Of a stretch of 64,000 nucleotides of DNA, positions 1-39,465 are shown piece after piece. Position 1 is the first letter of the stretch. Each line of letters begins with the position of its first letter. The position numbers and the translations under genes were made by a program. Below the pieces are notes generated by a model, which saw only the letters and a list, made by a program, of their open reading frames with translations, ran no database searches and was not told the origin of the DNA. Source of the stretch: Candidatus Omnitrophota bacterium (GTDB taxonomy: Bacteria > Omnitrophota > Gorgyraeia > Duberdicusellales > 4484-171); assembly GCA_028713415.1 (NCBI GenBank), contig JAQTOI010000002.1, forward strand, positions 16,689 through 80,688, written 5' to 3'.

Positions 1-783
1 TTTTTTGATAAAAAATTGCGAGAATAGTTTGAAGCTGCGCGATATCTTTAAGATGCCTAATTTTATCTTCTTCGGAAACCGATATCGTGCCGTCTTCTTC
101 AGATACAATAAGGCACAAAGCGTCCGTGCGTTCGGTTAAACCTAAAGCGGCTGCATGTCGCGTTCCCAGGCGGCCAACTTCTTTAATGTTTGTAGAAAGA
201 GGCAGATAGCAGCCGAACTTGACAATCCGGTTTGCCTCAATAACCACGGCGCCGTCATGGCTGGGGGCATGGCGCTCAAAAATACTCTCAAGCAACACCT
301 GGCTTAATAGGCCGTCCAAATTAATGCCGGCTTCGATATGGCGCTCCAGCGGGTCTATTCCGCGCAGGGCGACTAACGCCCCTATTTGTTTACGCGATAA
401 ATTCGCAAGGGCGCTGCTCAATATTTCTATGTTTTGCGAAAATGAAGCCCTAAGGCGACGGCGGGTTATTCCCAGCATAGCGATACTTTCAAAAAAATGG
501 CGTAAATCGTCCTGGAATATCACCACCACCATAATAAGAGCAGCCGCGAAGAACGCCTGCAGCGCCATGGTAGTCAGATATAAACCAAAATAGTTGGCTA
601 AAGCATAGACTGCCCCCACTACAATCATGCCGATAAAGATAAACTTTGCGCGGGGCCTGGCAAGCCAGACTAGTATCAAATAAACGAATAAGGCGATGAT
701 CGCTATATCGACCAGATCGGTTGCCTTAACGTTGTTAAAAAAACGTAGGTAGTGCGTAAATAAGGAATAAATTTTTTCTTTCA
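1..783 (-). CDS. cdaA: Diadenylate cyclase (c-di-AMP synthase) CdaA. The 5' part is complete and the C-terminus runs off the window start.
   Basis: Minus-strand ORF with ATG at 783-781 continuing to position 1. Translation MKEKIYSLFTHYLRFF... has 3 N-terminal TM helices, then a DAC domain with HDGAVVI and GTRHAAALGLTERTDALCLIVSEEDGTISV (RHR/A motif). It is not in the ORF track because it is truncated by the window edge. Confidence 0.8.
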
Positions 784-1012
784 TTTTAATTTACACTTTC
801 ATCGGGCGCAGATTATTAATATCTCTTAATTAGTTTAATCCTTATATTAAAGTATGTCAATTTAGTAATTCTTCATTTCTCTGACTTTTTTCCGCTTTTA
901 TATTAATCGATTAAAAAATTGAGAATTTGGTTTAGCGGCCGGGGTGCAGCAGGAAAAAAATAATTTTTGGTAATATTTTCACAACTTATAGAAGTTATGC
1001 TACTTATAGAAT

Positions 1013-1726
1013 TCAATCTAGATATTCCAAATGACAATCTCCTCTTTTACGAAGCAAATCACGGACTTTCTTTCGAAAAGATTCTTTTTTTATACGCTCA
1101 TCTGCTTTTTCGCACTCCTCCCCAAGTTTTCCGCTATCCCATTTGTACTTTTTCATAAGTGCCGCCATTTTACCGACGATAATTTGTTGAAACTGCTGGC
1201 CATGAGAACCTGCATCTTCCACGGTCATAACCCGTGGCTGCAGAGGGTCAAGCGGTTTTCCCAGCCCAGATTCATTTCTCGCTTGAAACGTAGCGCAATA
1301 AATGTCAGCGGCCTTTTCTACATCAGGATCGATTTTAATATTGGTATTGGTTGCGTATGATTCCTCGGAAGCTGTGACTGTTTTATCTTCTACGGAAATT
1401 GTTTTCTCCTGTTTTTCCTCAATTGTGCTTTCTTCCGGTTTTATAGGATTATTGGCTGACGCAGCAGGGGTTTGATTATTATCTTTTTCAATCGCTTTTA
1501 TAACATTATCAGTTGGTACGATTGGCGCTTGGCCGTCTATACTTTCAATCTCTTCAAAATAATAGGTTATAGGTATACCACTGATATCTACCTTAATAGC
1601 TTTATCTGTTTTCTCGATTATCTTTCCCTCCACGGTGTTTCCGGACTTAAGAATAACGGTCTCTGCAAAAACATGTACAGGAAGAAATAAAAATATCAAC
1701 AATGAAAGTATGATTTCTTTATTCAT
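1013..1726 (-). CDS. Hypothetical secreted protein (N-terminal signal peptide), upstream of cdaA on the same strand
   Basis: 239-aa ORF in the track. An internal Met (MNKEIILSLLIFLFLPVHVFA...) gives a classic signal peptide. The rest is Glu/Lys-rich with no recognisable domain. Confidence 0.45.
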   Translation of the reverse strand: MNKEIILSLLIFLFLPVHVFAETVILKSGNTVEGKIIEKTDKAIKVDISGIPITYYFEEIESIDGQAPIVPTDNVIKAIEKDNNQTPAASANNPIKPEESTIEEKQEKTISVEDKTVTASEESYATNTNIKIDPDVEKAADIYCATFQARNESGLGKPLDPLQPRVMTVEDAGSHGQQFQQIIVGKMAALMKKYKWDSGKLGEECEKADERIKKESFRKKVRDLLRKRGDCHLEYLD

Positions 1727-2088
1727 AAGCAAACCTCCTTAGAGTTTTAATTATATCATTCTTTTCCCGTAGCATTAAGATATTTTCTATGTAGCCAAGT
1801 ATATTATATATCTTAAATAACTTAATAGGCTTGATAATGGTAGTGAAAATCATGAAGAAAATAAAAATAGCGAAATCACTTATTAGGTAAGCAATTTCGC
1901 TATTTCCTTTGAAGCTATTGAGATTACAAAAAATCTTAAAAAAGATGGCGGGGACGAAGGGATTTGTCAACAATCTTCGACGAAGTCGAAGCGATTCCGA
2001 AGGAATCAATTGTTGCCAAATAAGACGTTGGTGTATGAGACAGCTGCGTATGATATTTAGAGCTAACTTGATGTTAAAGAATAAAAAC

Positions 2089-2166
2089 ACGGGGACGAAG
2101 GGATTTGAACCCTCGGTCAGCTGATCGACAATCAGCGGTCTTGAACCGGGCTAGACGACGTCCCCG
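2089..2166 (-). tRNA. tRNA-Asp (anticodon GTC)
   Basis: Reverse complement CGGGGACGUCGUCUAGCCCGGUUCAAGACCGCUGAUUGUCGAUCAGC...GGGUUCAAAUCCCUUCGUCCCCG. It has a 7-bp acceptor stem, a GUUCAAAUCC T-loop, and anticodon loop UUGUCGA. CCA is not encoded. Confidence 0.8.
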
Positions 2167-2383
2167 AAATGGCATATAGCTTACAGCAAATAGCAAGTAG
2201 TGAGTTATTGTAAAGCGATATTGAGAAAAGTCAAAGAATTTTTGTTGATTTTTATAAACCCTGGACTATGCGCCATGAAAAACAATGGGTCCGCCGCGCT
2301 CGTAAAATTTGAAGAAACAAATTTTGCGCTACGGGCGAGACTTCACCATTTTTTTGCAAGCAAAAAAAATGGTGGGCGATACA

Positions 2384-2406
2384 GCCTGCCTGCCGGCAAG
2401 GCAGGG
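2384..2406. repeat. REP-like GC palindrome (CCTGCCTGCCGGCAAGGCAGG), copy 1
   Basis: Near-perfect palindrome. Related copies occur at 10779-10810, 18327-18348, 23946-23967 and 38349-38370. Confidence 0.6.
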
Positions 2407-2661
2407 ACTTGTATAAAATCTTCGACGAAGTCGAAGCGGCCAAAGGCCTCTAATTTTATCCAAGAACTGCCATAGCGCTTTCAAATAACGCGTATTTTGG
2501 CGCATACCGTTGATTGCAAGGAAAACATGGGCGATACAGGACTTGCATGCAATCTTCGACTTCCTGTCGAAGCGCCCGAAGGGCTTTTGCATCCAAGAAC
2601 TGCTACCGCGATTTTAATCAAAGCTTGTTTGCCGCTAGCGCTCTGTTTACAAGGAAAACAA

Positions 2662-2735
2662 TGGGCGATACAGGACTTGAACCTGTGATCCCTTCCATGT
2701 CAAGGAAGTGCTCTAGCCAACTGAGCCAATCGCCC
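2662..2735 (-). tRNA. tRNA-Val (anticodon GAC)
   Basis: Reverse complement GGGCGAUUGGCUCAGUUGGCUAGAGCACUUCCUUGACAUGGAAGGGAUCACAGGUUCAAGUCCUGUAUCGCCCA. It forms a cloverleaf with anticodon loop UUGACAU and a T-loop GGUUCAAGUCC. Confidence 0.85.
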
Positions 2736-3047
2736 TAAATTGCAAATAGCATATGGCAAATAGCTTATAGTTAGATTGCATCCTGCCATAAGCTATATGC
2801 TATAAGCTATTAGCCAGACTGCCGGAGGCGGCTTGTCCGCCGTAGCTTTAGCGTAGGCGGAGACTCGTATCGAATCTGCGACGAAAGTCGCAGCGGTTTC
2901 TCTCTAATTCGATCCGAGATCACCCTTAAGTTTAAAAAAACGAACAATAGAGCAATAGAAAATAGACCGCAATTGAGCTTTAAATCTATTGTTCTATTTT
3001 CGATTGCTCAATTGCTCTGTCTAATTTCGCCACAGGCGAAATTAGAC

Positions 3048-3132
3048 TGCCGGGGGCGGGACTCGAACCCGCACGTCCCTCACGGGACAGCAGATTTTAA
3101 GTCTGCATTGTCTGCCATTCCAACACCCCGGC
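3048..3132 (-). tRNA. tRNA-Leu (anticodon TAA), class II with long variable arm, uninterrupted (no intron)
   Basis: Reverse complement GCCGGGGUGUUGGAAUGGCAGACAAUGCAGACUUAAAAUCUGCUGUCCCGUGAGGGACGUGCGGGUUCGAGUCCCGCCCCCGGCA. It has anticodon loop CUUAAAA, a long variable stem-loop CUGUCCCGUGAGGGACGUG, and a T-loop GGUUCGAGUCC. Confidence 0.85.
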
Positions 3133-3418
3133 TGAAGAATCATAGGGGCTCTGCCCCTTCTGACGTTCGCAAAGTAAGAATTTCATAGAAGCAAAACTTT
3201 GTTCACTGTCAACCCCGCAGTCAAGCCAGGAAGAAAAACTAGTTTCAGCGATTGTTCTAAAGATCAACTAAAGAAAGCTATTTAAAAGAGCAAAAATCTT
3301 TGCTTACGCAAAGAGTCATTACCAACACCCTGGCTTTATTGGTAAATAGCGTATTGCGTATAGCTTATGGTAGAAACTCTTAGCTTTTTGCCATTAGCTA
3401 TGAGCCATATGCCATTAA

Positions 3419-3492
3419 AGGCGGCGAGCGGATTTGAACCGCTGTGTAAAGGTTTTGCAGACCTCCCCCTTAGACCACTTGGGTACGCCGCC
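3419..3492 (-). tRNA. tRNA-Cys (anticodon GCA)
   Basis: Reverse complement GGCGGCGUACCCAAGUGGUCUAAGGGGGAGGUCUGCAAAACCUUUACACAGCGGUUCAAAUCCGCUCGCCGCC. The anticodon loop is CUGCAAA and the T-loop is GGUUCAAAUCC. Confidence 0.8.
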
Positions 3493-3504
3493 AATTCTAA
3501 TATT

Positions 3505-4176
3505 TTAAGAAAGAGCTGATTTATAATTGCTATAAAGTTTATATTTTCTGTCTAGAAAACAAAAGCTCTTATCGCTTGCAGGCCTGAACATAAAATCCAT
3601 TAGCTCCATAGCCTCTTTTGATTTATAAACTAATTGATAACTCCTATGGCTATTGTAAACTTTTTTAACCCGCTGCAAATGGCAGGAGCTTGCAATAACT
3701 TCCGAGAGGCTTTCTAAGAATCGTTTACTTCCAGAAGTAAAAACCGTCCGTGGGATTATTCTATTTTTTGTTTTTTCGCAATAAAATGTTCCATCGCCAT
3801 CAAAATAACCTCGTATGAAATCACCCATAAAATTAGAAGGTATACATTTTGGGAATATCATTGTTAACGATTTTCTTGGTGTTAGCCCTAAATTTATTAA
3901 ATCGCCATAAATATTATGATCGCCTATTCTAAGAAAATAACGGTATTTCCCGTTTGCTGTGCTCGGCGGCAATTTAATAATTTTGTGCTCTGACTCGAAT
4001 GCCCTTCGTATTGTTTGGAGAATTGAGATATCACAACTCGTGATTCTTAAGTATTTACCTCTTAAATAACTGGCATCTTCAAGGCTGCCGTCTGCAAAAA
4101 TATAGCCAAGAATATATGCCATATTTCTGAACCAGGTTTTAAAAAAGTTGCTGTTGACTTTATATTTAAAACCCAT
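3505..4176 (-). CDS. Free-standing double-motif LAGLIDADG homing endonuclease
   Basis: 223-aa ORF with two LAGLIDADG-type motifs, YILGYIFADGSL near the N-terminus and FIRGYFDGDGTF about 100 residues later. It sits directly beside the tRNA cluster and is not embedded in another gene. Confidence 0.75.
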   Translation of the reverse strand: MGFKYKVNSNFFKTWFRNMAYILGYIFADGSLEDASYLRGKYLRITSCDISILQTIRRAFESEHKIIKLPPSTANGKYRYFLRIGDHNIYGDLINLGLTPRKSLTMIFPKCIPSNFMGDFIRGYFDGDGTFYCEKTKNRIIPRTVFTSGSKRFLESLSEVIASSCHLQRVKKVYNSHRSYQLVYKSKEAMELMDFMFRPASDKSFCFLDRKYKLYSNYKSALS

Positions 4177-4252
4177 TCAAGCCTCGCTTCTTAGAAGTCA
4201 AGCTACCGCGCCTAATTTTCAGAAATAGGGCATAAACTTTTGCCGTGGAGCT

Positions 4253-4462
4253 TTACTTTTGCGCGGTATCTTTGACTTGTATTTTGCCCTCAACAATTTC
4301 CCGTAGAGCGTTATCCAAAAGTTTCTCTCCGGGTTTGTCAATCAACGATTTTGCTCCATCAGCAAGGGCAAGCGCGCGTTTGGCTGCCAGAATGGTAATT
4401 TTGAATATTGAACCTTTGCTGGCACCAATTACTCTATCCACTGAAATATACTGCTCATTCAT
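4253..4462 (-). CDS. rpoZ: DNA-directed RNA polymerase subunit omega
   Basis: 69-aa ORF with the ILAAKRALALADG signature of RpoZ. It lies downstream of gmk in the conserved gmk-rpoZ arrangement. Confidence 0.75.
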   Translation of the reverse strand: MNEQYISVDRVIGASKGSIFKITILAAKRALALADGAKSLIDKPGEKLLDNALREIVEGKIQVKDTAQK

Positions 4463-5031
4463 TCGTACCTCCTTGCCAGAAGAATATCCTCCAGATCCAT
4501 TACTGCCGTTTTTATATTCTTGTTAATGACAACATAATCATAATCTTTTTGAGCAAGCATCTCTTTCTTAGCAAGCGCTAGCCGCTCGTCGATTATATTC
4601 TTTTTTTCCGCGCGCGAAAGCAAGCGTTTATAAAGCTCTCCGGAATCCGGAGCAGCTATAAAAATGGTAGTTATTTTACCAACTTTATGGTGTTTTTTCA
4701 AATACATTCCTCCTTTTACGTCTATGCAAAGAATCAGGTTTTTCTGCGCGTGCTTTGCCTGGGTATAGAAATACTTCGGCGTTCCGTAATAATTATCCAA
4801 TACTTTCTGGCTCTCTAAGAAAAATTTTTTCTTCTTGCGCGCGAGGAACTTTTCTTTACTCACAAAGAAATAATCCCTGCCGTTGTTTTCCTTGGGCCTG
4901 CGCTTGCGGGTGGTCCAGGAAATGGCGCGGATGAAATTTTTCTTGAAGATCTTCTTGCGAAATAGTTTATTGAGGAGTGTTGTTTTGCCGCTTCCGCCAG
5001 GACCGGAGAGGATAAAAACTCGAGTGCCCAT
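4459..5031 (-). CDS. gmk: Guanylate kinase
   Basis: 190 aa with a P-loop (ILSGPGGSGKTTL) and SWTTRKRRPKENNGRDYFFVSKEKF, which matches the guanylate kinase TTR...E..G.DY.FV motif. It overlaps rpoZ by 4 nt. Confidence 0.85.
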   Translation of the reverse strand: MGTRVFILSGPGGSGKTTLLNKLFRKKIFKKNFIRAISWTTRKRRPKENNGRDYFFVSKEKFLARKKKKFFLESQKVLDNYYGTPKYFYTQAKHAQKNLILCIDVKGGMYLKKHHKVGKITTIFIAAPDSGELYKRLLSRAEKKNIIDERLALAKKEMLAQKDYDYVVINKNIKTAVMDLEDILLARRYE

Positions 5032-5831
5032 TATTCTATGTTTTGTGCTTGTTCGCGTATCCTGTCCAGATAACCCTTGGCCTCGACGATTAAAAACGCA
5101 AAGTTTTTATCCTTTGTCTTACTGGAAGCTGCGTTTAGCTCGCGTAATATTTCCTGGGTGAGAAAATCTATGGATTTCCCTTTAGGGGATGCGCCGTTTG
5201 CGTGTATCGTTTTTTCGAGCTTATCGGTATAAAAGAGGCCCAAAGAAACTTCTTCGTCGATATCCTCCTTAATATTTGCTTCGTTATTCTTTGCGGGTTT
5301 TACCTTTTTTTGTTTACGCAGGCGGTCTATTTCCGTAATATTATGTTTTAACTGGGCTAAGCTTTTGAGCATCTGTTTGCGGATAGCCTCTCCTCCTTTT
5401 GCCTTAAATTCCAGGAGTTTCGCTAAACCCTCACGCATCCCTGCGATTATAAGGCTCTCCTCGCTTTTATTCTTCTCCTGCGACCAGACAACTTGAGGCA
5501 AGTTAAGAAAATCACTTACCGAAAGCTCAGAACGAAGGTTATACTTTTTTGCGAAATGCCTGGCCTCAGTAATATATTTCGCAAGTGTTTTTTCATCAAT
5601 ATGAATTTGATGGCTTATGGGGCTTTTGGGGAAAATATATACTTCGATTTTCCCACGCTGGATTTTCTTTTTAATTTCCCGTTTAATATTTTCCTCAAGT
5701 AAAATATTCTCAGCCGGTAAATTATGGATCGTGATATCCAGATATTTAAAGTTGAGTGAACGCAAAACGATCTGAAGACTCTGTGAATCTTTACGTTTAA
5801 ATATGCTGGCATATGCTGTCATCGATTTCAT
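5031..5831 (-). CDS. yicC: YicC-family stress-induced protein (UPF0701)
   Basis: N-terminal MKSMTAYAS matches the YicC start MIRSMTGFG, and the C-terminal IDFLTQEILRELNAASSKTKD matches the YicC DFLxQEMNREANTLGSK motif. The ATG at 5831 overlaps the ndk stop (ATGA). The track ORF extends to a GTG at 5837. Confidence 0.7.
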   Translation of the reverse strand: MKSMTAYASIFKRKDSQSLQIVLRSLNFKYLDITIHNLPAENILLEENIKREIKKKIQRGKIEVYIFPKSPISHQIHIDEKTLAKYITEARHFAKKYNLRSELSVSDFLNLPQVVWSQEKNKSEESLIIAGMREGLAKLLEFKAKGGEAIRKQMLKSLAQLKHNITEIDRLRKQKKVKPAKNNEANIKEDIDEEVSLGLFYTDKLEKTIHANGASPKGKSIDFLTQEILRELNAASSKTKDKNFAFLIVEAKGYLDRIREQAQNIE

Positions 5832-6334
5832 TTCCACACCTTCTTCCTGTAGTTCTTAAGGCTAGTCTGCTTTACTGGATACAAATCGCTTACAATCTCA
5901 TCCGGGTTAAACCAAAGTTTTATTTCCCGCTCTGCCTCGCTAGGGTCGCTTGAAGCGTGCACCACGTTTTCATAAAGCCCTGTGGTCAAAATCCTGCCGT
6001 AGGCTCCGCGCACGCTGACCGGATCCGCTTCTTCCGGATTAGTGGCTCCGGAAATCTGCCGTACTTTGGCTATGGCGTCCTTACCGTAATAGATGAGAGC
6101 CATCACCCTGTTTTCTCCGTGCAGCCTGCCGGTAATATATTTGATTAATTCAGGATAAAACGGTTTATCTTTCAGGTGCCGGTAGTGCTGTTGTGCAAGT
6201 TTTTCGCTAACGCTTACGATTTTGGCGCCGATTATCTTAAGTTTCGTCTCAGATAGGCGGCTTAAGATATTACCGGTCAATGACTTCTTCAAACCATCCG
6301 GCTTTATGATAACTAAGGTTGCCTGATTGGTCAT
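5828..6334 (-). CDS. ndk: Nucleoside diphosphate kinase (long form with C-terminal extension)
   Basis: ATLVIIKPDGL...NPEEADPVSVRGAYG...NVVHASSD are classic NDK motifs. Confidence 0.85.
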   Translation of the reverse strand: MTNQATLVIIKPDGLKKSLTGNILSRLSETKLKIIGAKIVSVSEKLAQQHYRHLKDKPFYPELIKYITGRLHGENRVMALIYYGKDAIAKVRQISGATNPEEADPVSVRGAYGRILTTGLYENVVHASSDPSEAEREIKLWFNPDEIVSDLYPVKQTSLKNYRKKVWK

Positions 6335-7329: not shown

Positions 7330-8166
7330 TCAACCTTGAGGCATGCTTTTATCTGAAGTCGCACTTTCAAGCGGGCTGCAGGCTTCCTGGACTAAATAAT
7401 TTATTTCTATTTTTTCTTTAATAATTTCCTCGGTAAGGTTGAGGTACGCTTTTGCTCCCACGCATAAAGGATCATAACAATGTATGGGCTTGCCAAAACT
7501 CGGTGCTTCGGCAAGTTTAATATTACGGGGAATAATAGTATTGAAAGTTTTATCTTTAAAAAATTTACGCACTTCCTCTATTACCTGCAAAGTGAGTTTG
7601 GTGCGAAAGTCTGCCATGGTAAGTAAAAACCCCTCAACTTCTAAATGCGAGTTTAAACGCTCTCTAATTAAGTCAATGGTATGGAGCAAATTAGAAACGC
7701 CTTCCAGGGCATAATACTCACACTGGATGGGTATAATCAAACTGTCGGAAGCGGAAAATACATTAACCGTGAGTAATCCCAATGAAGGTGGCGCATCGAT
7801 AATTATATAGGAAAAATCCTCTTTTAATTGCTCTACTTTCTCTTTTAGGCGCAGCTCTCTATTTTCAATATTGACCAACTCTATTTCCCCTCCGGTAAGC
7901 GATATATTAGCCGGAATAATGGAAAGATTAGGCCATTGAGTAGGATATACGCTATCCTTTAATGACGCGTTATCAGCAATGACATCGTAAATAGAATTCT
8001 TCTCTTTGCTGTTAAAGCCTATGCCGGAAGTAGCGTTCCCTTGAGGGTCAATATCGATAAGGAGGGTTTTCTTGTTGCCGAGGGCTAAATAAGAACTGAT
8101 ATTTATAGCGGTGGTAGTTTTTCCTGTTCCGCCTTTTTGGTTGCAAATGCCAATTATACGGCCCAT
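7330..8166 (-). CDS. parA: Chromosome partitioning ATPase ParA/Soj
   Basis: Deviant Walker A motif (ICNQKGGTGKTTTAINIS) and the ParA/MinD fold. Confidence 0.85.
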   Translation of the reverse strand: MGRIIGICNQKGGTGKTTTAINISSYLALGNKKTLLIDIDPQGNATSGIGFNSKEKNSIYDVIADNASLKDSVYPTQWPNLSIIPANISLTGGEIELVNIENRELRLKEKVEQLKEDFSYIIIDAPPSLGLLTVNVFSASDSLIIPIQCEYYALEGVSNLLHTIDLIRERLNSHLEVEGFLLTMADFRTKLTLQVIEEVRKFFKDKTFNTIIPRNIKLAEAPSFGKPIHCYDPLCVGAKAYLNLTEEIIKEKIEINYLVQEACSPLESATSDKSMPQG

Positions 8167-8215
8167 AAATTAGTATCTTATTTTTAAAAAGCTATATTTA
8201 ATAATACTTTTTCGA

Positions 8216-8231
8216 GTTTTCACGTGAAAAC
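8216..8231. promoter_or_regulatory. parS-like centromere site (ParB binding), copy 1
   Basis: 16-bp palindrome GTTTTCACGTGAAAAC. Its 12-bp core TTTCACGTGAAA is identical to the parS consensus core (tGTTtCACGTGAAAca). It sits immediately upstream of parAB. Confidence 0.55.
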
Positions 8232-8731
8232 TTTTTTAATTAATAGTATTCTAATATCCGCCGACTGGACTGTCAAGATAAATCAGAAATAAATTATATA
8301 AAAGCGAAAGCTGTCCGCCAAAGGCTAAAAAATTTGTTTGCCTTTGGCGAGGCCTCGCCATTTTAAACCACTCGCGCAATGGCGGGTGGGCTTCCGGATT
8401 TTGAAATTTGTAAGAGGTAACACATATCCGGTATCAGGCTAAGAATAGTGATAAAGATAAAACATCACCTGTCAAGATGTACGTCACTAGACAATTAGCG
8501 AATTCAAAAAACGTGGTACCTATTACTTGTAATGTAACTTGTTACCTACCTTGCTCGTCTTGCGGCGAAGCCGAGCGCCGGCAGGCAGGCGTGATACATA
8601 AATAAGCCGTAGAGCATTTTCGTTACCCCAAGCCGCTTCGCGCTGATTACACGAAATCTTGCGCAAAATCGTGCTCAAAACTAAGCTAATTTCCTCAAAA
8701 CAAAACTCATTGATTTTATTACGTTTTTAGA

Positions 8732-8747
8732 GTTTTCACGTGAAAAC
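8732..8747. promoter_or_regulatory. parS-like centromere site, copy 2 (perfect 20-bp palindrome GAGTTTTCACGTGAAAACTC)
   Basis: Identical 16-mer to copy 1, with extended flanking identity. The two copies bracket about 500 bp of non-coding DNA between parA and yidC. Confidence 0.55.
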
Positions 8748-8832
8748 TCTAAAAATGCAATGAATTCAAGGGTTTTTAATTTTGGTTTCAGTAATGTGCT
8801 GCGGCTGGTATTGGAATCAAAAAAGATGTAGT

Positions 8833-10278
8833 TTAAGCCCTTTCGCAAGCGTAGCTATGCTGAAATTTAGCTACTTTTAATTGATAGGCAAAAGTGAGCA
8901 GGTTCTGGATAAACCAGTAAAGAGTTAAACAGGCAGCAAAGTTATAGAACATTACTCCCATGAAAATAGCAAAAAATAAGGCCATTGATTGCTGTTCTTT
9001 ATTGGTGGCAGGAGTGGTAATTTTCTGCTGAACCAATGTCAACGCGACCATAAGCAAAGGCAGTAAATTCAGGTATTCGCCGACAAAAGGAATAGTCATG
9101 GGCAATTTCAAAATTCTATCAGGAAGCGTTAAATCTTTAATCCATAAGAAAGATACTCCTTTTACTTCCACAAAGCGCATAAAAACCTGCAAAAGCGCGA
9201 AAAATACCGGCATCTGAAACAAAAGGGGCAAACAGCCGCCTAAGGGATTAATCTTATATTTTTTGAATAATTCCGCCTGTTCTTTTTGCAGCTTAGCCAT
9301 ATTATCTTTGTATAGGCTTTTAAGTTTATCCAATTCCGGCTGGACTTGCGCCATTTTTTTCATGGCTTTTGTGCTTTGCATGGTAAAAGGGAAGAGAACG
9401 ATATAGGAAAAAGTTGTTAGCAAAATGATACTCAAACCCCAGCTTTTAGTCCAGGAATAAAAGAGGTGCAAAAACCAGGCTAAGATAACTCCTATGGCAT
9501 TAAAAAAACCATAATTTAGAACCCCTTCTAAGCCATGTTGCTTCAAATCATTTGTTGTCTGGGGGCCAATATAAAGAGAAATTGACGAAGAAGGCGAGGA
9601 GAGGAACAGTTCAACTTCAGTCTTTGTTTTTTGGGTTTTCAGGCTATATTTGCCTTTCAGAAGTGAAATGCAAAAATATTGGCTGCGGCTTCCGGCAAAA
9701 TTAACATTCTCATAGGATTCATTTTTTACTTTCTTAAAATTTTCGCGCCGGATATCGTTTTCCCGGACAAAAAATAGTTCCTGATACCCCTGTTCTAACA
9801 TATTGGAGGATAGAGAGTTGGAAAACAAAACCGCTTGTCCCTGCAAAGAAGAGGGGAGGGTTATTTTAAGAATATACCCGTCAAAATAAAACTCTTTTTT
9901 CTCGCCGTTTTCAGCCGTAAAAATAATGCTATTGCCTGCAATTTGAGCAGAAAACTTCTTATCGCGATCTTGCGGGATAAATCCGATATTCTTAAAACTC
10001 AACTCTTCCTGGTATTTTAACAGTAACAATTTTTTTATGTAACCACCTGTAGTAGAATAGGTTACATCAAAATTGCCTATTCTTACTTGAGATAGGTTTT
10101 CCTTTTCAGGCAGGTTTAAAGGCGATTCTTTGGGTTCTTCTTTCACTTCCTGCACTGGGGTGGAGGAAGAGGAGGATGCTGTCGGGGGTGTTTTTGGAAG
10201 ATATTTGGGTGCCAAAACACTATAACCTATTAGAAACAAAAGACTTAGCAAAAAAGCGTAAAGAAGGCGTTTTTCCAT
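8833..10278 (-). CDS. yidC: Membrane protein insertase YidC
   Basis: 481 aa with an N-terminal TM helix, a periplasmic domain, and a C-terminal 5-TM core (GGCLPLLFQMPVFFALLQVF). Confidence 0.85.
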   Translation of the reverse strand: MEKRLLYAFLLSLLFLIGYSVLAPKYLPKTPPTASSSSSTPVQEVKEEPKESPLNLPEKENLSQVRIGNFDVTYSTTGGYIKKLLLLKYQEELSFKNIGFIPQDRDKKFSAQIAGNSIIFTAENGEKKEFYFDGYILKITLPSSLQGQAVLFSNSLSSNMLEQGYQELFFVRENDIRRENFKKVKNESYENVNFAGSRSQYFCISLLKGKYSLKTQKTKTEVELFLSSPSSSISLYIGPQTTNDLKQHGLEGVLNYGFFNAIGVILAWFLHLFYSWTKSWGLSIILLTTFSYIVLFPFTMQSTKAMKKMAQVQPELDKLKSLYKDNMAKLQKEQAELFKKYKINPLGGCLPLLFQMPVFFALLQVFMRFVEVKGVSFLWIKDLTLPDRILKLPMTIPFVGEYLNLLPLLMVALTLVQQKITTPATNKEQQSMALFFAIFMGVMFYNFAACLTLYWFIQNLLTFAYQLKVAKFQHSYACERA

Positions 10279-10311
10279 TTTATTGTTTTTTTATGAGGAA
10301 ACTTTGCGCCA

Positions 10312-10548
10312 TCACAACCCGTTGCTGGTCCGAGAATGGTGCGTGGGTAAAGGGTCAAGGCCACCTCTGACAAAAGGATTACAGCGCAAAATTCGCGCGA
10401 TACTTAACATGCAAGCTTTTAAAAATGGGTATTGCAAAAAGGCTTGCCTGGCATATTGGGAACAACTTGGCTCATAAAGGCAATGTGAAGGAAAAAGAAA
10501 AGAAATTCGTTGATAAAGACCTATTAGAAAAAGAGCTAGGCGATTCAT
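10312..10548 (-). CDS. yidD: Membrane protein insertion efficiency factor YidD
   Basis: 78 aa with the YidD motifs ...[15 protein letters not shown]...[12 protein letters not shown]. Its start overlaps the rpmH stop (ATGA). Confidence 0.75.
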
Positions 10549-10685
10549 ACGGTAATTAGCTGCTTGCGCCCTTTTTTCCTTCGTCTAGCCAATACATTCC
10601 TGCCGGAATGGCTTGCCATTCTCTTACGGAAACCGTGCCTTCTTTTGCCGCGCACGTTGGTGGGAGTGGTCAAAGTTAGTTTCAT
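10545..10685 (-). CDS. rpmH: 50S ribosomal protein L34
   Basis: Hand-translated 46-aa minus-strand [49 protein letters not shown]. It is below the track's length cutoff. The bL34 motif HGFR.RM....GR.VL.RRR.KGRK is present. Confidence 0.8.
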
Positions 10686-10778
10686 AGGTCAAGATTTTAA
10701 CACACTGCTTTTTTATGTCAATAATTTTTATGGATATTTCTAAAAAAATGTTAATATGACACCGCAGAATCGCAAAAT

Positions 10779-10810
10779 CCCTGCCTGCGTCGAAACTTCG
10801 GTAGGCAGGC
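10779..10810. repeat. REP-like GC palindrome variant with nested hairpin (CCCTGCCTGC-gtcgaaacttcggt-AGGCAGGC)
   Basis: The same CCTGCCTGC/GCAGGCAGG arms flank an inner CGAA-AC-TTCG hairpin, upstream of rpmH. Confidence 0.5.
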
Positions 10811-11145
10811 CGCAAAAATGCTAAGGGAAGACGAAAAGTAAGCTCGAGAAATAAGCAAATCCATTCTTTGTATCTCTTTTTGCGCTTTTGCGCATCCTTT
10901 GCGTCCGCCTTCGCTAACGCTTCGGCCTGGCTTCGCCGAAGGCTACGCCGAGGCGAGCGAGACCTCTCCGAAGCTCGAAGAACGAAGGAGGGTCTTTACG
11001 GTGTAAAAATATTTCCTGAAAACTCCTGAAAATAATTGTATAGATATTTATCAAAGGAATGATATAATATCCGAGGTTTGCGTGGGCGCATAAGTGTTAA
11101 ATGAGGCTATCTTGCGCTCGCAATTACTAATGGTATAATAAAAAT

Positions 11146-11724
11146 ATGCTTATGGCTGTAGAAAAAGAAAAAAAAGATTTACGTATAAGCCTGCTGGAGA
11201 AGCTGTTGTCTCTGGCCCAAGAAGAAATAAAAAGGAGGAGTAAAAATGTTGAACAACGCCTATCGAGCTTACCTATATATAAAGAAGCAAAAGTTATCAT
11301 GGCTTATTACCCTCTAAAAGGGGAAGTAGATATACTGGAGATGATTAGGAAGGCGAATAAAAAAAGATTTTGTTTTCCCGTGATGGATCTTAAAACCGGG
11401 GGCCTTAGGGCATTTGAGGTTTCCAACCTTGATACCGATTTTATTAGAGGGCCTTTCGGCGTTAGAGAACCCGACAGGGACAAAGCGAAAGAAGTTGATA
11501 TTGCGGAAATAGACTTGGTTATTGTACCGGGCTTAGGTTTTGACCACAAAAGAAACAGGTTAGGCAGAGGCGCCGGCTTCTATGACCGCTTCCTGAAGAA
11601 AATTAAACCTCCCACAAAAAAAGTGGGCATCGCTTTTGATTTCCAAATCTTAGAAAGCCTTCCTATTCATCAGTCGCTTGACGAAACAGTGGATGTTGTC
11701 GTCGGCGAAAATTTCCAAATTTAG
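11146..11724 (+). CDS. 5-formyltetrahydrofolate cyclo-ligase (MTHFS)
   Basis: 192 aa with ...VIMAYYPLKGEVDILEM... and VDLVIVPGLGFDHKRNRLGRGAGFYDRFL, typical 5-FCL motifs. Confidence 0.75.
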   Translation: MLMAVEKEKKDLRISLLEKLLSLAQEEIKRRSKNVEQRLSSLPIYKEAKVIMAYYPLKGEVDILEMIRKANKKRFCFPVMDLKTGGLRAFEVSNLDTDFIRGPFGVREPDRDKAKEVDIAEIDLVIVPGLGFDHKRNRLGRGAGFYDRFLKKIKPPTKKVGIAFDFQILESLPIHQSLDETVDVVVGENFQI

Positions 11725-11911
11725 CATATTTTAATTTTATCAAATTAGCTAGGGAGTAATGAATTTATAATACCCCTACAGCTAAAAACGTCGAAAATTT
11801 AGTCTAAATTTTCTCGTTGCTGTCGGGGTCAATTCGAACTAAGCACTTTTTCTGCAGGCCCGCCTATCGGCGGTCAGCTTGAAAAAGCGCAAGTCTCATT
11901 GAGGAGGAACC

Positions 11912-13462
11912 ATGCAAATTCTTTACACATTTATAGGTGTGCTAATCGGCATATTTTGCGGCTGGTGGCTGGGAGAGATTTTTGAAAAAAATAAACTAAA
12001 AAAAGCACAGGAAGACGCAACAAAGATCTTAAAAGAGGCAAAGGCAAAAGCAGATGAAGTCTTGCGTAAAGCCGATTTAGACGGCAAAGAGCTGCTTTAT
12101 AAGTTGCGTGTTGAATTTGAAAAACAGAACGCTTCCAAAAAAGAAGAATTATTTCAACTAGAGAAAAGACTGACCCAGCGTGAAGAGAATTTAGAGAAGC
12201 GGCTTGATTTCATCGAGAACAAAGAGCAGGAATTAAACCGCAAAGAAGTGAGCTTAAAGAATCTTTCCGAGGAGTTGACCAAAAAAGACGAGGCGTTAAG
12301 GCAGCTAATTGAGGAGGAGAAAGAGAAACTAAAAAGAATCTCTTCGTTGACCCAAACTGAAGCGCGTGAACTGCTCTTAAAACGCTACGAAGAGGAGTTA
12401 CGCAGCGAAAAAGCAAAAATGCTTAAGCAAATGGAAGAAGAGATTAAAGAGGAAGCTGACAAAAAAGCAAAAGAAATAATAACGCTTTCTATACAACGCT
12501 GCGCCGTAGAGCATTCGACAGAGAGCACGGTGAGTGTTGTGCCTCTTCCAAATGATGAAATAAAAGGGAGGATAATCGGCCGCGAAGGAAGAAATATCCG
12601 GGCATTTGAGATGGCGACCGGAGTTGACCTGGTCATTGACGATACTCCGGAAGCGGTAAATCTTTCAAGCTTTGATCCTATCAGGCGCGAAATTGCCCGC
12701 CTCTCACTTGAAAAATTAGTCCAGGACGGCAGAATTCATCCTGCGCGCATCGAAGAAATAGTGGACAAAACCAAACAGGAATTTGATAAACAACTGCTTG
12801 AGGAAGGCAAAAATGCTGCTTTTGAAGTGGGGATTCATAACCTGCACCCTGAATTAATAAAATTACTGGGTAAGCTGCGTTACAGAACGAGTTTCGGCCA
12901 GAACGCCCTGCAACACTGCAAAGAAGTGGCGTTTATCATGAGCGTATTGGCATCTGAACTGGGGCTTGACTCGCGTATTGCAAAAAAAGTCGGGCTCCTG
13001 CATGATATAGGAAAAGCCGTTGACCATCAGGTGGAAGGTACTCACGCCCAAATCGGCGCTGAACTCTTAAGGAAGTATGGAGAGAACGAAGTGGTCATAA
13101 ACGCCGCGGAAGCGCACCATGAAGAGGCAGAGTTTAAATCCATTTATTCTCTGCTTACCCTGATTGCCGATGCAATTTCAGCTTCGCGGCCCGGCGCGCG
13201 CAGGGAAACGCTTGAAACATACATCAAGCGCCTTAATGAACTGGAAACAGTGGCAAACTCTTTTGACGGTGTTGACAAAAGTTACGCTATACAGGCTGGG
13301 CGCGAGATACGCGTTATTGTGCAACCCAACAAGGTTAAGGATGAGGAGATAACACTGCTTGCTCATGAGATTAAGAAAAAAATAGAGCAGGAGATGGATT
13401 ATCCCGGCAACATCAAAATCACTTTAATCAGAGAAACGCGGGCGGTTGATTACGCTAAATAA
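11912..13462 (+). CDS. rny: Ribonuclease Y
   Basis: N-terminal TM helix, a long coiled-coil, a KH domain ([15 protein letters not shown]), and an HD domain ([25 protein letters not shown]). Confidence 0.85.
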
Positions 13463-18326: not shown

Positions 18327-18348
18327 ATCACAAATTCCCTGCCTTGCC
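18327..18348. repeat. REP-like GC palindrome (CCCTGCCTTGCCGGCAGGCAGG), copy 3
   Basis: Lies just after the korA stop and probably serves as a terminator or stabiliser hairpin. Confidence 0.6.
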
Positions 18349-18490
18349 GGCAGGCAGGCAAATTACAAATAAATTCCAATAACCAATGGCCGAATTATCT
18401 AAAACGGAAAGCTGTTTGGAATTTTGGTAATTAAAATTTGGATATTGTTTGTAATTTGATGCTTGGAGATTGGAATTTTAAAAAGTTATT

Positions 18491-23661: not shown

Positions 23662-23736
23662 TGCCCGGTAGTGTAATTGGCAACATGACAGACTCTGGAT
23701 CTGTTGTTCATGGTTCGACTCCATGCCGGGCAGCCA
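23662..23736 (+). tRNA. tRNA-Gln (anticodon CTG), CCA encoded
   Basis: UGCCCGGUAGUGUAAUUGGCAACAUGACAGACUCUGGAUCUGUUGUUCAUGGUUCGACUCCAUGCCGGGCAGCCA. It has a U1-A72 pair, discriminator G73, anticodon loop CUCUGGA, and T-loop GGUUCGACUCC. The overlapping track ORF 23661-23972 is spurious. Confidence 0.85.
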
Positions 23737-23945: not shown

Positions 23946-23967
23946 GCCTGCCTGCCGGCAGGCAGGG
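23946..23967. repeat. REP-like GC palindrome (GCCTGCCTGCCGGCAGGCAGGG), perfect 20-bp palindrome core, copy 4
   Basis: Lies in the non-coding region downstream of tRNA-Gln. Confidence 0.6.
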
Positions 23968-24461
23968 AGTGAGCGACTGGTTCGCCGCAGGGAAATTCCA
24001 TGCGACCGGAGGGCTCATGCCCGAAGGGAGTGCCGAAATTTTACCTGAATGTAATTATATAGATGATTTCGGCCCGGGCAGCCAGGCTTCATCGCGCTTG
24101 CGCGCGTTTCTTCGAATAGAGGTTTTCCTTCAACCGAATGTTATTTTCTCTTACGCCCCGATATTAATCGGGGCGTAACTCTTTAGGGTTTGGGCCCCCA
24201 AACTAAGGTTGTTCATATGAAGCCTCATGAAGGGCGCTGCCTCTTTCTGATGCTTCGCTGTAAGCTTACGCAAAGAAGAAACTTACGCTTCGCTGGTCAA
24301 TCCCCGTAAGAATTTCAGAGAAGAATTTTTATGCTAAATGTTTTGCATTTTAGCTCGATAGCTTTAATTTTTTAAAAGGGTAGTTGGAACAACGGGTTCG
24401 CTGAAGGAAGGGAGTTTTTATTCGTTGATTGTCCCGGCAGGCGAGAACCTGTTAGCCGCGG

Positions 24462-38592: not shown

Positions 38593-39465
38593 ATGGGTAA
38601 GAAAGTTTGTATTTCTATAGCAGTGGTTACTATTATGTTCGCAGCAATGGTAACAAGCGCCTTTTGCGCTCAAAACACAATAGAAAAGTTGCGCTCAAGC
38701 GACCCTAACGAACGGGCTATGGCCGTTACTGAATTAGGAAGAAAGAGTGACCCCTCTAGCGTGCAGGCGTTAATAAATGCGCTTGGCGATGCCTCGGAAG
38801 ATGTAAGAAGGCGTGCGGCGCAATCTTTGGGAAAAATAAAAGATGGCAGCGCAGTGGAACCGTTAATCGCCGCGCTTCGCGATAAAAACGCAAATGTGCG
38901 CATGTGTGCAGCGCAGGCCCTTGGTTTTATACAGGATACAAAAGCCACCGAAGCACTATTAGCTTTACTTAATGATGCAAACACCGAGGTCAAAAAATTT
39001 GTTATAAAAGCTTTGGCGCAACTTCGCGATAACCGCGCCAGCGATTCTCTCATCGCCGCCCTAAAGGACGCTGACTCAAGCGTCAGGCAATTATCCGCAG
39101 AAGCTCTGGGAGAAATGAAAGACGCTAAATCAGTAGATTCTCTTATCGAGCTCCTGAAAGATAACGCGGCTTTAGTACGCATGGATGCAGCGGGCGCTCT
39201 TGGCAAAATAAAAGACTCAAAAGCCGTAGAACCGCTAATTTCTGCTTTGAACGATAAATACAAAGAGGTGCGCGCAGCGTCCGCAGAGGCGCTTGGAGAG
39301 ATACAAGACGCTAAGGCCACTGATGCGCTTAAGAAACTTGCCGGCGACGAATATAAAGAAGTACGCGATAAAGCCAAAACAGCCTTGCAAAACATAGGGA
39401 TTGCTAAACCGCAGGAAGAAGAGCCAAAGCCCACGGGCACAAACACAAACCTAGAGCTTAAATAA
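38593..39465 (+). CDS. Secreted HEAT-repeat (PBS-lyase-type) protein
   Basis: 290 aa with a signal peptide and about 8 tandem 31-residue repeats ((D/N)..VR..AA.ALG.I.D..A(V/T)(E/D)(P/A)LI.AL.D). The 272-aa antisense track ORF is an artefact of the repeats. Confidence 0.7.
   Translation: MGKKVCISIAVVTIMFAAMVTSAFCAQNTIEKLRSSDPNERAMAVTELGRKSDPSSVQALINALGDASEDVRRRAAQSLGKIKDGSAVEPLIAALRDKNANVRMCAAQALGFIQDTKATEALLALLNDANTEVKKFVIKALAQLRDNRASDSLIAALKDADSSVRQLSAEALGEMKDAKSVDSLIELLKDNAALVRMDAAGALGKIKDSKAVEPLISALNDKYKEVRAASAEALGEIQDAKATDALKKLAGDEYKEVRDKAKTALQNIGIAKPQEEEPKPTGTNTNLELK

Follow-up and report, generated by a model that had tools for sequence, protein, structure and literature searches.

What leaves copies of tRNA gene ends lying beside the intact genes from which they derive? 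The question arises in a tRNA cluster near the start of the 64,000-nt stretch of contig JAQTOI010000002.1, from a metagenome-assembled Omnitrophota genome, that is analyzed here (hereafter the window), where a first-pass annotation had noted orphan tRNA-end fragments, a recurrent hairpin and an adjacent homing endonuclease gene, and had proposed scars of repeated integration, endonuclease-triggered repair or a tRNA-derived repeat family. We find that the fragments delimit structured mini-insertions at tRNA T-loops, which form a real family with no match in the libraries searched. Integration at tRNA 3′ ends holds insofar as the tRNA is regenerated and its original 3′ end displaced downstream, but instead of random scars the traces are copies from a single, discrete family of structured elements of ~135 nt, also present at Met and Pro tRNAs elsewhere. 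As annotated, the minus-strand tRNA genes are intact, including tRNA-Leu(UAA), a continuous 85-nt gene in which ARAGORN and Rfam matched no intron family:

2089-2166, minus strand: tRNA-Asp(GTC), intact (ARAGORN; Rfam 59 bits), with TGTTTTT, not CCA, following positions 56-73
2662-2735, minus strand: tRNA-Val(GAC), intact, without encoded CCA (ARAGORN; Rfam 68.3 bits)
3047-3132, minus strand: tRNA-Leu(UAA), intact, without intron, called at 3048-3132 with the discriminator A at 3047 (ARAGORN; Rfam 53.8 bits)
3419-3492, minus strand: tRNA-Cys(GCA) of a second sequence type, no unit behind the gene (ARAGORN; Rfam)

The insertions, termed units, lie behind the Asp, Val and Leu genes. A covariance model, R1, returned exactly four copies in the window, also with filters off:

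2021-2088, minus strand: spacer of the Asp unit, about 68-70 nt, AT-rich and unstructured (folding z-score +1.0), without likeness to other spacers
1967-2020, minus strand: module of the Asp unit (R1 match 1961-2020, 69.2 bits; minimum-energy fold)
1946-1966, minus strand: displaced tRNA-Asp 3′ end, with positions 56-73 at 1949-1966 (18/18 identity) and CCA at 1946-1948, then a T-run
2528-2661, minus strand: inner Val unit, adjoining the tRNA (R1 match 2540-2597, 66.9 bits; repeat families)
2370-2527, minus strand: outer (older) Val unit, with the original trailer behind it (R1 match 2406-2464, 76.6 bits)
2817-3046, minus strand: Leu unit (R1 match 2862-2918, 60.5 bits; repeat family), with an orthologous unit in the related locus L122

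Described in tRNA sense, as throughout (the units being on the minus strand), a unit runs from an AT-rich spacer through a conserved three-way-junction module of ~55 nt to a copy of the tRNA 3′ end that starts at T-loop position C56. The spacer covers 59-72 nt after the discriminator N73 and begins T-rich. The module consists, in order, of a foot (YTYG), an unpaired G, P1a (usually ATNNAAT), P3 (consensus NNCC-TTC-GGNN), P2 (CTNCGNC, a loop of 3-5 nt, GNCGNAG), P1b (ATTNNAT) and an unpaired A or G. Base pairing joins the foot to C56-R59 of the T-loop. This structure was the minimum-energy fold in five of six units tested. In the Asp module, the foot with its unpaired base reads TTTG-G, P1 CAACAAT/ATTGTTG, P3 GATTCC-TTC-GGAATC and P2 CTTCGAC-TTC-GTCGAAG, followed by an unpaired A. 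The inner Val unit comprises a spacer (2598-2661), a module (2546-2597; P1 ATGCAA/TTGCAT, P2 loop AGGAA) and a copy of positions 56-73 (2528-2545). The outer one has its spacer at 2465-2527, its module at 2412-2464 (P1 ATAAAAT/ATTTTAT) and tRNA positions 56-61 at 2406-2411; an inserted 21-nt palindrome (2385-2405) then precedes positions 62-73 (2373-2384) and CCA (2370-2372). The Leu unit, which lacks P3, consists of a spacer (2919-3046) and a module (2868-2918; P1 ATCGAAT/ATTCGAT, P2 CTGCGAC-TTTC-GTCGCAG), followed by tRNA positions 56-61 (2862-2867), a hairpin insert (2833-2861), positions 62-73 (2821-2832, 11/12 identical) and a shared flank, GTCT (2817-2820). Its spacer carries an extra segment of ~67 nt (2936-3018) with nested inverted repeats and the 8-nt tandem repeat TCTATTGC, which is missing from the orthologous spacer in L122.

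Realignment confirmed the earlier inventory, with some corrections. The tRNA-Asp fragment at 1949-1966 is an exact 18-nt copy of positions 56-73, the Val fragment given as 19 nt (2527-2545) is an exact 18-nt copy at 2528-2545 plus one flank base, and the hairpins lie where they had been placed, CTTCGAC-N3-6-GTCGAAG occurring three times in the window against 0.00 expected from shuffles. The Leu P2 (2876-2893) differs from the other three hairpins by a compensatory T-A to G-C change. Other entries needed amendment: the 12-nt Val copy at 2373-2384 exists but continues at 2406-2411 past the palindrome; the flank caaggaaaaca, assigned to each Val fragment, occurs only at 2516-2526 and 2650-2661, the outermost fragment being flanked instead by TGG (that is, CCA) and a T-run; and the list of 3′ fragments had missed that of tRNA-Leu (2862-2867 and 2821-2832).

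Comparison with relatives shows the units to be insertions; their junction is fixed at C56, and the native end is displaced. In L120, which has the same synteny and a Gmk protein 65% identical to that of the window, tRNA-Val runs straight into CCA-TTTTTTT...AAAAATGGTGAGGTCTCGCC; in the window, CCA and the AAAAATGGTGAGGTCTCGCC trailer sit behind the outermost Val fragment. The same four-tRNA cluster without a module was found in L124, L125, L126, L138/139 and L141-144, and a unit lies behind tRNA-Leu in L122 and L127. When eight relatives were sampled without bias, three had modules and five had none at the same conserved tRNA cluster. The working tRNA-Asp and tRNA-Val genes of the window lack CCA and the outermost Asp and Val fragments carry it (1946-1948 and 2370-2372), a combination of outer copy with CCA and working tRNA without that is seen in three units (window Asp, window Val and L132 Asp). 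CCA is encoded by the window's native tRNA-Gln, the native tRNA-Asp of L124 and L127 and the tRNA-Val of L120, although not by every native gene (it is missing from Asp in L126 and from Val in L122, L124 and L127). From empty and filled sites together with the CCA pattern, it follows that the outer copy is the original gene end.

The units differ in history. The two Val units of the window are ~70-85% alike over aligned stretches and little alike in the remaining spacer, yet their 18-nt repeats match perfectly, a combination that favors separate and fairly recent insertion of elements that had already diverged. Between the window and L122, whose Gmk proteins are 74% identical, the Leu units have in common their P1, the lack of P3 and a hairpin insert inside the outer tRNA copy, and these shared oddities indicate descent from a single insertion event. 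The stems of the two are either identical or compensated (CTGCGAC/GTCGCAG versus CTCCGAC/GTCGGAG) and the spacers unalignable, a pattern that points to selection on the fold at the Leu locus.

Metagenomes were searched with a strict pattern that encoded the foot, P1b, both P2 strands and the T-loop and left the variable stem positions free. It yielded seven loci, and each of them has the module close behind a tRNA gene; wherever the sequence is complete, a copy of the 3′ end of this same tRNA comes next. The host genes encode tRNA-Met (L131), Leu (L132, where the gene lies beyond the contig start, L133 and L135), Val (L134, with the outer copy cut by the contig end), Pro-CGG (L136) and a tRNA cut by the contig edge (L137). 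R1 added a second, decaying unit behind the L131 tRNA-Met and an Asp unit in L132, giving 15 copies, each close behind a gene for one of six kinds of tRNA (Asp, Val, Leu, Met, Pro and one unidentified) and always in tRNA sense. No copy contains an open reading frame (ORF) in the 114-123 nt between its repeats. Two other searches were discarded: the bare hairpin ATCTTCGAC-N3-5-GTCGAAGCG gave 119 matches in reference genomes, all in GC-rich coding-like DNA without the flanking motifs of the module, and a looser module pattern gave two identical chance matches in coding DNA of viral contigs, with no tRNA nearby.

Thirteen modules were aligned for structure statistics. Standard pairs fill 97.8% of the paired-column cells, and 10 of the 21 pairs change on both sides. 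The covariation score was 0.41 versus 0.117 for shuffles (0/500 reached 0.41), and slid controls paired at 19-36% only. The foot follows the T-loop of the host tRNA, CTTG occurring with CAAG, CTCG with CGAG and TTTG with CAAA; columns 3/61 hold U-A in eight modules and C-G in five. Such strict Watson-Crick covariation implies that the module acts as a folded single strand, whether DNA or RNA. Predicted folding slightly favors the tRNA-sense over the antisense strand, in 11 of 13 modules with RNA parameters and in 13/13 with DNA parameters, and a conserved stem mismatch is of the purine-purine type (G.A or G.G) on the sense strand. The stable GAA triloop of antisense DNA might have spoken for the antisense strand, but predicted energies prefer the sense strand. 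The earlier suggestion of a tRNA-derived repeat family applies only to the 18-nt terminal copy, not to the module, which is not tRNA-like: we considered a degenerate tRNA 5′ part, which is alike in size (about 55 nt), but the module has another pairing scheme and is homologous across tRNA kinds.

The period from repeat to repeat is 131-141 nt (11 units), and spacers of different tRNA kinds (27-43% GC) show no detectable similarity; a scan for a shared promoter, hairpin, ORF or motif found none conserved. Spacer folding z-scores are mostly near 0, with 2 of 11 at -2.3 and -3.1. The commonest repeat length is 18 (C56-N73), with outliers of 24-27 that mostly reach into the T-rich trailer; the 25-nt repeat of L127 shares TCATACA instead. 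Two side observations concern similar inserts. Behind the tRNA-Asp of L120 (10930-11104) lies another insert of ~138 nt that R1 did not detect, with a 19-nt repeat of the tRNA 3′ end, a different internal hairpin and a period of 156 by reading of the sequence (152 by script); it may represent a second family of the same kind. In L131 (875-948), the two tRNA-Met units are separated by a module-free insert of 57 nt that opens with TTGTTTT and closes with a hairpin, a 14-nt repeat of the tRNA end bounding it; the Leu units of the window (2833-2861) and of L122 have similar hairpin inserts within their outer tRNA copies.

How did such units reach so many tRNA genes? With moderate confidence, we read them as a family of gene-less, non-autonomous mobile elements that are specific for the tRNA T-loop and moved in trans. 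The observations behind this reading are a conserved covarying fold, a foot that changes with the target tRNA, six tRNA kinds, a patchy distribution among relatives and the lack of ORFs. A unit is placed between T55 and C56 of a tRNA gene and brings a replacement 3′ end (56-73), a length-constrained spacer of ~65 nt and a module of ~55 nt; the tRNA is regenerated, and its original 3′ end with CCA and trailer is shifted ~135 nt downstream. Repeated insertion builds a tandem array in which the newest unit adjoins the tRNA. We infer an enzyme encoded elsewhere and acting in trans, which would most likely read the module as a folded single strand presenting the T-loop crossover in a helix (compare attC and IS200/IS605 ends). 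The 18-nt repeat could be element-borne, as in integrase attachment (att) sites, or result from a staggered cut of about 18 nt, as with Cas1-type integrases near a T-loop. A measured cut would be favored by the exact N73 ends and the easy spread to new tRNAs; an element-borne end would fit L127, L134 and the differences in CCA and trailer.

Several points weigh against this reading. An element-borne repeat poorly explains the colonization of new tRNA kinds, and a staggered cut leaves unexplained both the 25-nt repeat of L127 and the CCA beside the working L134 tRNA-Val. No integrase, transposase, HUH nuclease, Cas1 or reverse transcriptase was found in the 64-kb window, nor any such enzyme near the other copies, where four large unassigned ORFs were examined with Pfam and the rest by translated N-termini. 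None of the loci seen holds a copy with its own genes, so that movement in trans is purely what we infer, and neither an excised form nor population-level polymorphism was observed. Conserved stems beside a lost spacer, as at the Leu locus, would be expected if selection acted at this locus on an RNA or cis element, and not from a purely selfish element; the outer L131 unit shows the opposite pattern, decaying with loss of its P1 pairing. Pfam covered 37 window ORFs, among them all of at least 200 amino acids except parA, parB, yidC and an antisense ORF overlapping 38593-39465; neither these nor the four ORFs near other copies included a recombinase. Family matches were to housekeeping genes, the LAGLIDADG gene and single RHS and Fic proteins, and the remaining window ORFs matched no family. 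The Asp and Val units had no BLAST match among phage and plasmid records, and Rfam cmscan of 1-6000 with E up to 5 returned the four tRNAs and chance-level matches only. Terminal inverted repeats are lacking, the unit ends TGTTTTT... and ...ATTNNNNA not being complementary.

Could the units nevertheless belong to a known system? None of the mobile-element families with which we compared them accommodates them. Integrases split a tRNA gene that the island sequence restores, leaving a displaced fragment (PMC4383910), and strand exchange of phage Ms6 falls within the 7-base T-loop, where changes to the attP core can redirect the phage to another target (PMC1762012). The units resemble both in the split and regenerated tRNA, the displaced 3′ fragment bounding the far end of the insert, the possible tandem accretion, the identity block from T-loop to tRNA 3′ end and a core whose change shifts the target. 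They differ in being ~135 bp long, with a constant period and no integrase or any other gene inside (no Phage_integrase match exists anywhere in the window), in the covarying three-way junction that abuts the core with its foot pairing to 56-59, and in the spread of one family over at least six tRNA kinds. Miniature inverted-repeat transposable elements likewise do not fit: the units have no terminal inverted repeats, and their direct repeat is 18-27 nt, not a short fixed duplication.

In IS200/IS605 elements, four guide nucleotides at the foot of a hairpin select the cleavage or target tetranucleotide by pairing with it, and this guide is reprogrammable (PMC3201880, PMC5934647). With these elements, and with repetitive extragenic palindromic (REP) elements served by TnpA, the units share features of single-stranded-DNA hairpin recognition, the lack of terminal inverted repeats and small gene-less copies. 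IS200/IS605 elements, however, make no direct repeat and carry no piece of the target, whereas the units have the 18-nt repeat, and the window encodes no Y1 transposase. The YTYG foot pairs with C56-R59 in 13/13 aligned copies and covaries with the tRNA; its 4-nt pairing is a plain helix extension, a geometry unlike that of IS608 (PMC3201880). IS91 targets 5′-CTTG, GTTC and CTCG, with T always second, and its ori end has two subterminal palindromes beside the tetranucleotide (PMC13181058). Here, too, the antisense of T-loop positions 56-59 (CTTG, CTCG or TTTG) abuts the hairpin-rich end and inverted repeats are lacking. This is resemblance only, as the tetranucleotides of the units are dictated by the conserved T-loop; IS91 has no 18-nt repeat, the units have one and fold better on the sense strand, and no HUH-Y2 transposase was found.

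The casposon integrase duplicates a segment adjoining the tRNA-Pro T-loop, which serves as 'leader', and tandem insertions were foreseen for it (PMC5137440). Casposon and CRISPR spacer insertion share with the units a long duplication beside a T-loop segment and a newest insert that adjoins the leader. The casposon duplication is, however, 15 bp long with only 5 bp of tRNA overlap, and the element has terminal inverted repeats and genes; the units have no inverted repeats, no Cas1 was found, and the repeat is mostly 18 nt with outliers of 24-27. In type V-K and I-F CRISPR-associated transposons, a delocalized CRISPR RNA (crRNA) with a short tRNA match homes beside the tRNA gene (PMC8730458). 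The order of a structured partial repeat and then a tRNA-matching segment recurs in the units, whose tRNA match starts right after GGTT. Delocalized crRNAs lie inside transposons of tens of kilobases with cas and tns genes, unlike the units, where the insertion is the unit itself and the tRNA match doubles as the flanking direct repeat. Integron attC sites conserve structure rather than sequence. The units share this principle only; they have no R boxes (RYYYAAC/GTTRRRY, crossover G|TT), their foot being YTYG/CRAR and their junction A|C56. Self-cleaving three-way-junction ribozymes (hammerhead, twister-sister and others) gave no Rfam match, and the junction strands of 0-5 nt are too short for a hammerhead core.

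The strongest rival to mobility is a functional RNA, in which module and tail copy would form a structured 3′ trailer serving as a processing or stability signal or as a small RNA, selected by the host and duplicated locally. We regard this as possible but clearly the less probable account. The units probably lie inside tRNA transcripts, judging from a consensus scan that gave the Asp transcription unit candidate bounds from a promoter-like site (2234-2207) to the following feature:

1863-1907, minus strand: 20-bp hairpin with T-run, likely terminator of the Asp transcription unit (terminator scan, consensus match only)

In keeping with an RNA, the units always lie in tRNA sense within the likely transcription unit of their tRNA, the sense strand folds slightly better and conserves the purine-purine mismatch, the orthologous Leu units keep stems and lose spacer sequence, and the same RNase, cutting after each tail copy, would free a unit-length RNA. 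The E. coli tyrT locus offers a partial parallel, with repeated units behind a tRNA gene that are transcribed with the tRNA; its rtT unit, however, is 178 bp and belongs to one tRNA locus, not to a family over many tRNA kinds. Each of the tyrT repeats reportedly contains the terminal ~19 nt of the tRNA-Tyr 3′ end. The locus does yield an RNA, rtT, whose mode of action is unclear (bioRxiv 10.1101/2024.07.17.603846). Against a trailer RNA as the whole explanation, local duplication cannot put a homologous module behind six tRNAs with their own tails and matching feet; the module is dispensable, being absent from five of the eight relatives at the same conserved cluster; no Rfam family matched, the rtT model (RF00391) giving no match in window 1-6000; and the outer L131 unit is decaying. 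An RNA role may exist in addition to mobility, not instead of it. Within the mobile-element reading itself, one old copy has a decayed terminal repeat and conserved stems, which suggests that the module also acts in place, probably within the tRNA transcript.

A bolder extension of the mobile-element reading, which we think improbable, would make the module the recognition structure of a new single-strand mobilization system guided by base pairing. The 4-nt foot would act as guide and pick a matching T-loop, and insertion would duplicate exactly the 18 nt from C56 to the discriminator so that the essential gene survives; such a system would be reprogrammable and safe by design, and old copies would have been domesticated as tRNA-trailer RNAs.

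Less probable again, and already largely refuted, is repeated integration of integrase-carrying prophages or islands that later decayed by deletion down to their att junctions. A regenerated tRNA with a displaced fragment starting in the T-loop is the hallmark of integrase islands (PMC4383910, PMC1762012), and tandem accretion at tRNA genes is known. Independent deletions, however, would not keep a period of 131-141 nt in 11 units at six tRNA kinds, nor is a homologous covarying three-way junction against C56 expected every time; no copy contains an integrase fragment, and the units show no similarity to phage or plasmid records, with chance matches only in the viral-contig scan.

That the units are by-products of double-strand-break repair after LAGLIDADG cleavage, as first suggested, is hardly credible and is refuted for the 3′ units by lack of co-occurrence: an endonuclease gene does lie in the same tRNA cluster, and its insertion itself left a tRNA-Cys 5′ remnant (4202-4212), but L122, L127 and L135 (complete from rpoZ or gmk to the tRNA cluster) have units and no LAGLIDADG gene in this interval, L120/L121 have two such genes and no module, L141 has one and no module, and repair scars would not form a conserved structured family. 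L131-L134, L136 and L137 also lack a LAGLIDADG gene but are less telling, being short or from elsewhere in the genome. Relatives with this arrangement and no endonuclease gene had been expected to speak for ordinary regulatory hairpins; their existence breaks the link to the endonuclease, yet it does not turn the hairpins into ordinary regulatory ones.

What, then, is the endonuclease gene doing here? Its annotation as a double-motif enzyme was borne out, with both motifs directly readable (LGYIFADGSL and IRGYFDGDGT):

3505-4176, minus strand: free-standing double-motif LAGLIDADG homing endonuclease gene (Pfam PF14528, LAGLIDADG_3, E = 6.7e-9)
4202-4212, minus strand: 11-nt 5′ remnant (GGCGCGGTAGC) of an older tRNA-Cys, upstream of the LAGLIDADG gene (alignment)

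L120 has a gene at the same position (8885-9634) that is 51% identical to the window LAGLIDADG. By lineage, L122, L124, L126 and L127 have none, the window and L141 one and L120/L121 two, with a further gene abutting tRNA-Leu in L120/L121 and L141. At the place of the remnant, L120 and L121 keep 22 nt of the older tRNA-Cys, and L122 and L126 have the older type intact. The order of remnant, LAGLIDADG gene and complete tRNA-Cys of another sequence type recurs in the window (3419-4212, minus strand) and L120 (8801-9685). With a remnant before it and a complete gene of the other type behind, the endonuclease gene and the replacement tRNA-Cys seem to have arrived together as one cassette, an event that is separate from, and no part of, the unit family.

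Integration into tRNA genes is among the main routes for foreign DNA into bacterial genomes and is usually studied on elements of many kilobases with their own integrase. Here, ~135 bases leave the same footprint, and all they hold is a spacer, a folded module and a spare copy of the tRNA tail. Their novelty relative to tRNA-integrating elements lies in the very small size, in a folded module set against the core and in a single family that serves many tRNAs. If the units move in trans, they are near the smallest possible integrating element and point to an Omnitrophota enzyme that reads a folded strand and a tRNA T-loop; the foot changing with the target suggests targeting that a few bases could reset. 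If they act as RNA, they add a new structured motif to the tRNA trailers of a phylum about which little is known. Island-mapping tools based on displaced tRNA fragments would call the units as tiny false 'islands'.

The minus strand carries, in this order, parA, parB, ndk, yicC, gmk, rpoZ, the LAGLIDADG gene and the tRNA genes for Cys, Leu(UAA), Val and Asp. The gmk product (4459-5031) is 100% identical to a protein of a metagenome-assembled genome named Candidatus Omnitrophica at NCBI, and its close homologues are all from Omnitrophota. GC skew switches sign near 9-11 kb (about 8000-12000), beside yidC, from where genes diverge; dnaA adjoins yidC in relatives, and this region is a probable replication origin. 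With the skew switch next to yidC, the tRNA cluster is probably transcribed in the direction of replication, and its tRNA-sense strand would be the lagging-strand template. At the other end of the window, 59974-63807 encodes a 1277-amino-acid protein with a C39 peptidase domain, DUF6531 and RHS repeats, likely a secreted polymorphic toxin.

Minor repeats surround the tRNA genes as well. Arrays of the 7-nt repeat ATAGCNN with inverted copies lie at 2169-2194, 2739-2771, 2785-2810, 3346-3364 and 3390-3408, forming arms as long as 27 bp immediately before tRNA-Val and tRNA-Asp and in the interval between Cys and Leu; 14 of 22 window matches fall inside the tRNA cluster. Relatives use other heptamers (L120 10750-10870 and L132 118-265), and possible roles of the arrays are those of processing stems or of sites for a regulator. 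Past the terminator of tRNA-Gln, about 330 nt downstream of the gene, GCCCGGGCAGCCA (24068-24082) resembles the tRNA-Gln 3′ end with CCA (23723-23736); R1 detected no module there, and a chance match is possible. The diverged copy of the tRNA-Leu 5′ end listed by the first-pass annotation is real:

3322-3335, minus strand: copy of the tRNA-Leu 5′ end, identical at 13/14 positions, about 190 nt upstream of the real gene (repeat search)

L136 has a 32-nt duplication of the tRNA-Pro 5′ end and flank about 100 nt upstream of tRNA-Pro, and TAATGA stands behind both duplicates; such duplicated 5′ ends may reflect a second kind of insertion that restores the 5′ side. Finally, a GC-rich REP-like palindrome, CCTGCCTGCCGGCA(A)GGCAGG, is dispersed over the window (2385-2405; 8576-8589 and 18345-18358, both on the minus strand; and 23947-23966), with seven matches versus 0.36 expected and one copy lying inside the outer tRNA-Val fragment.

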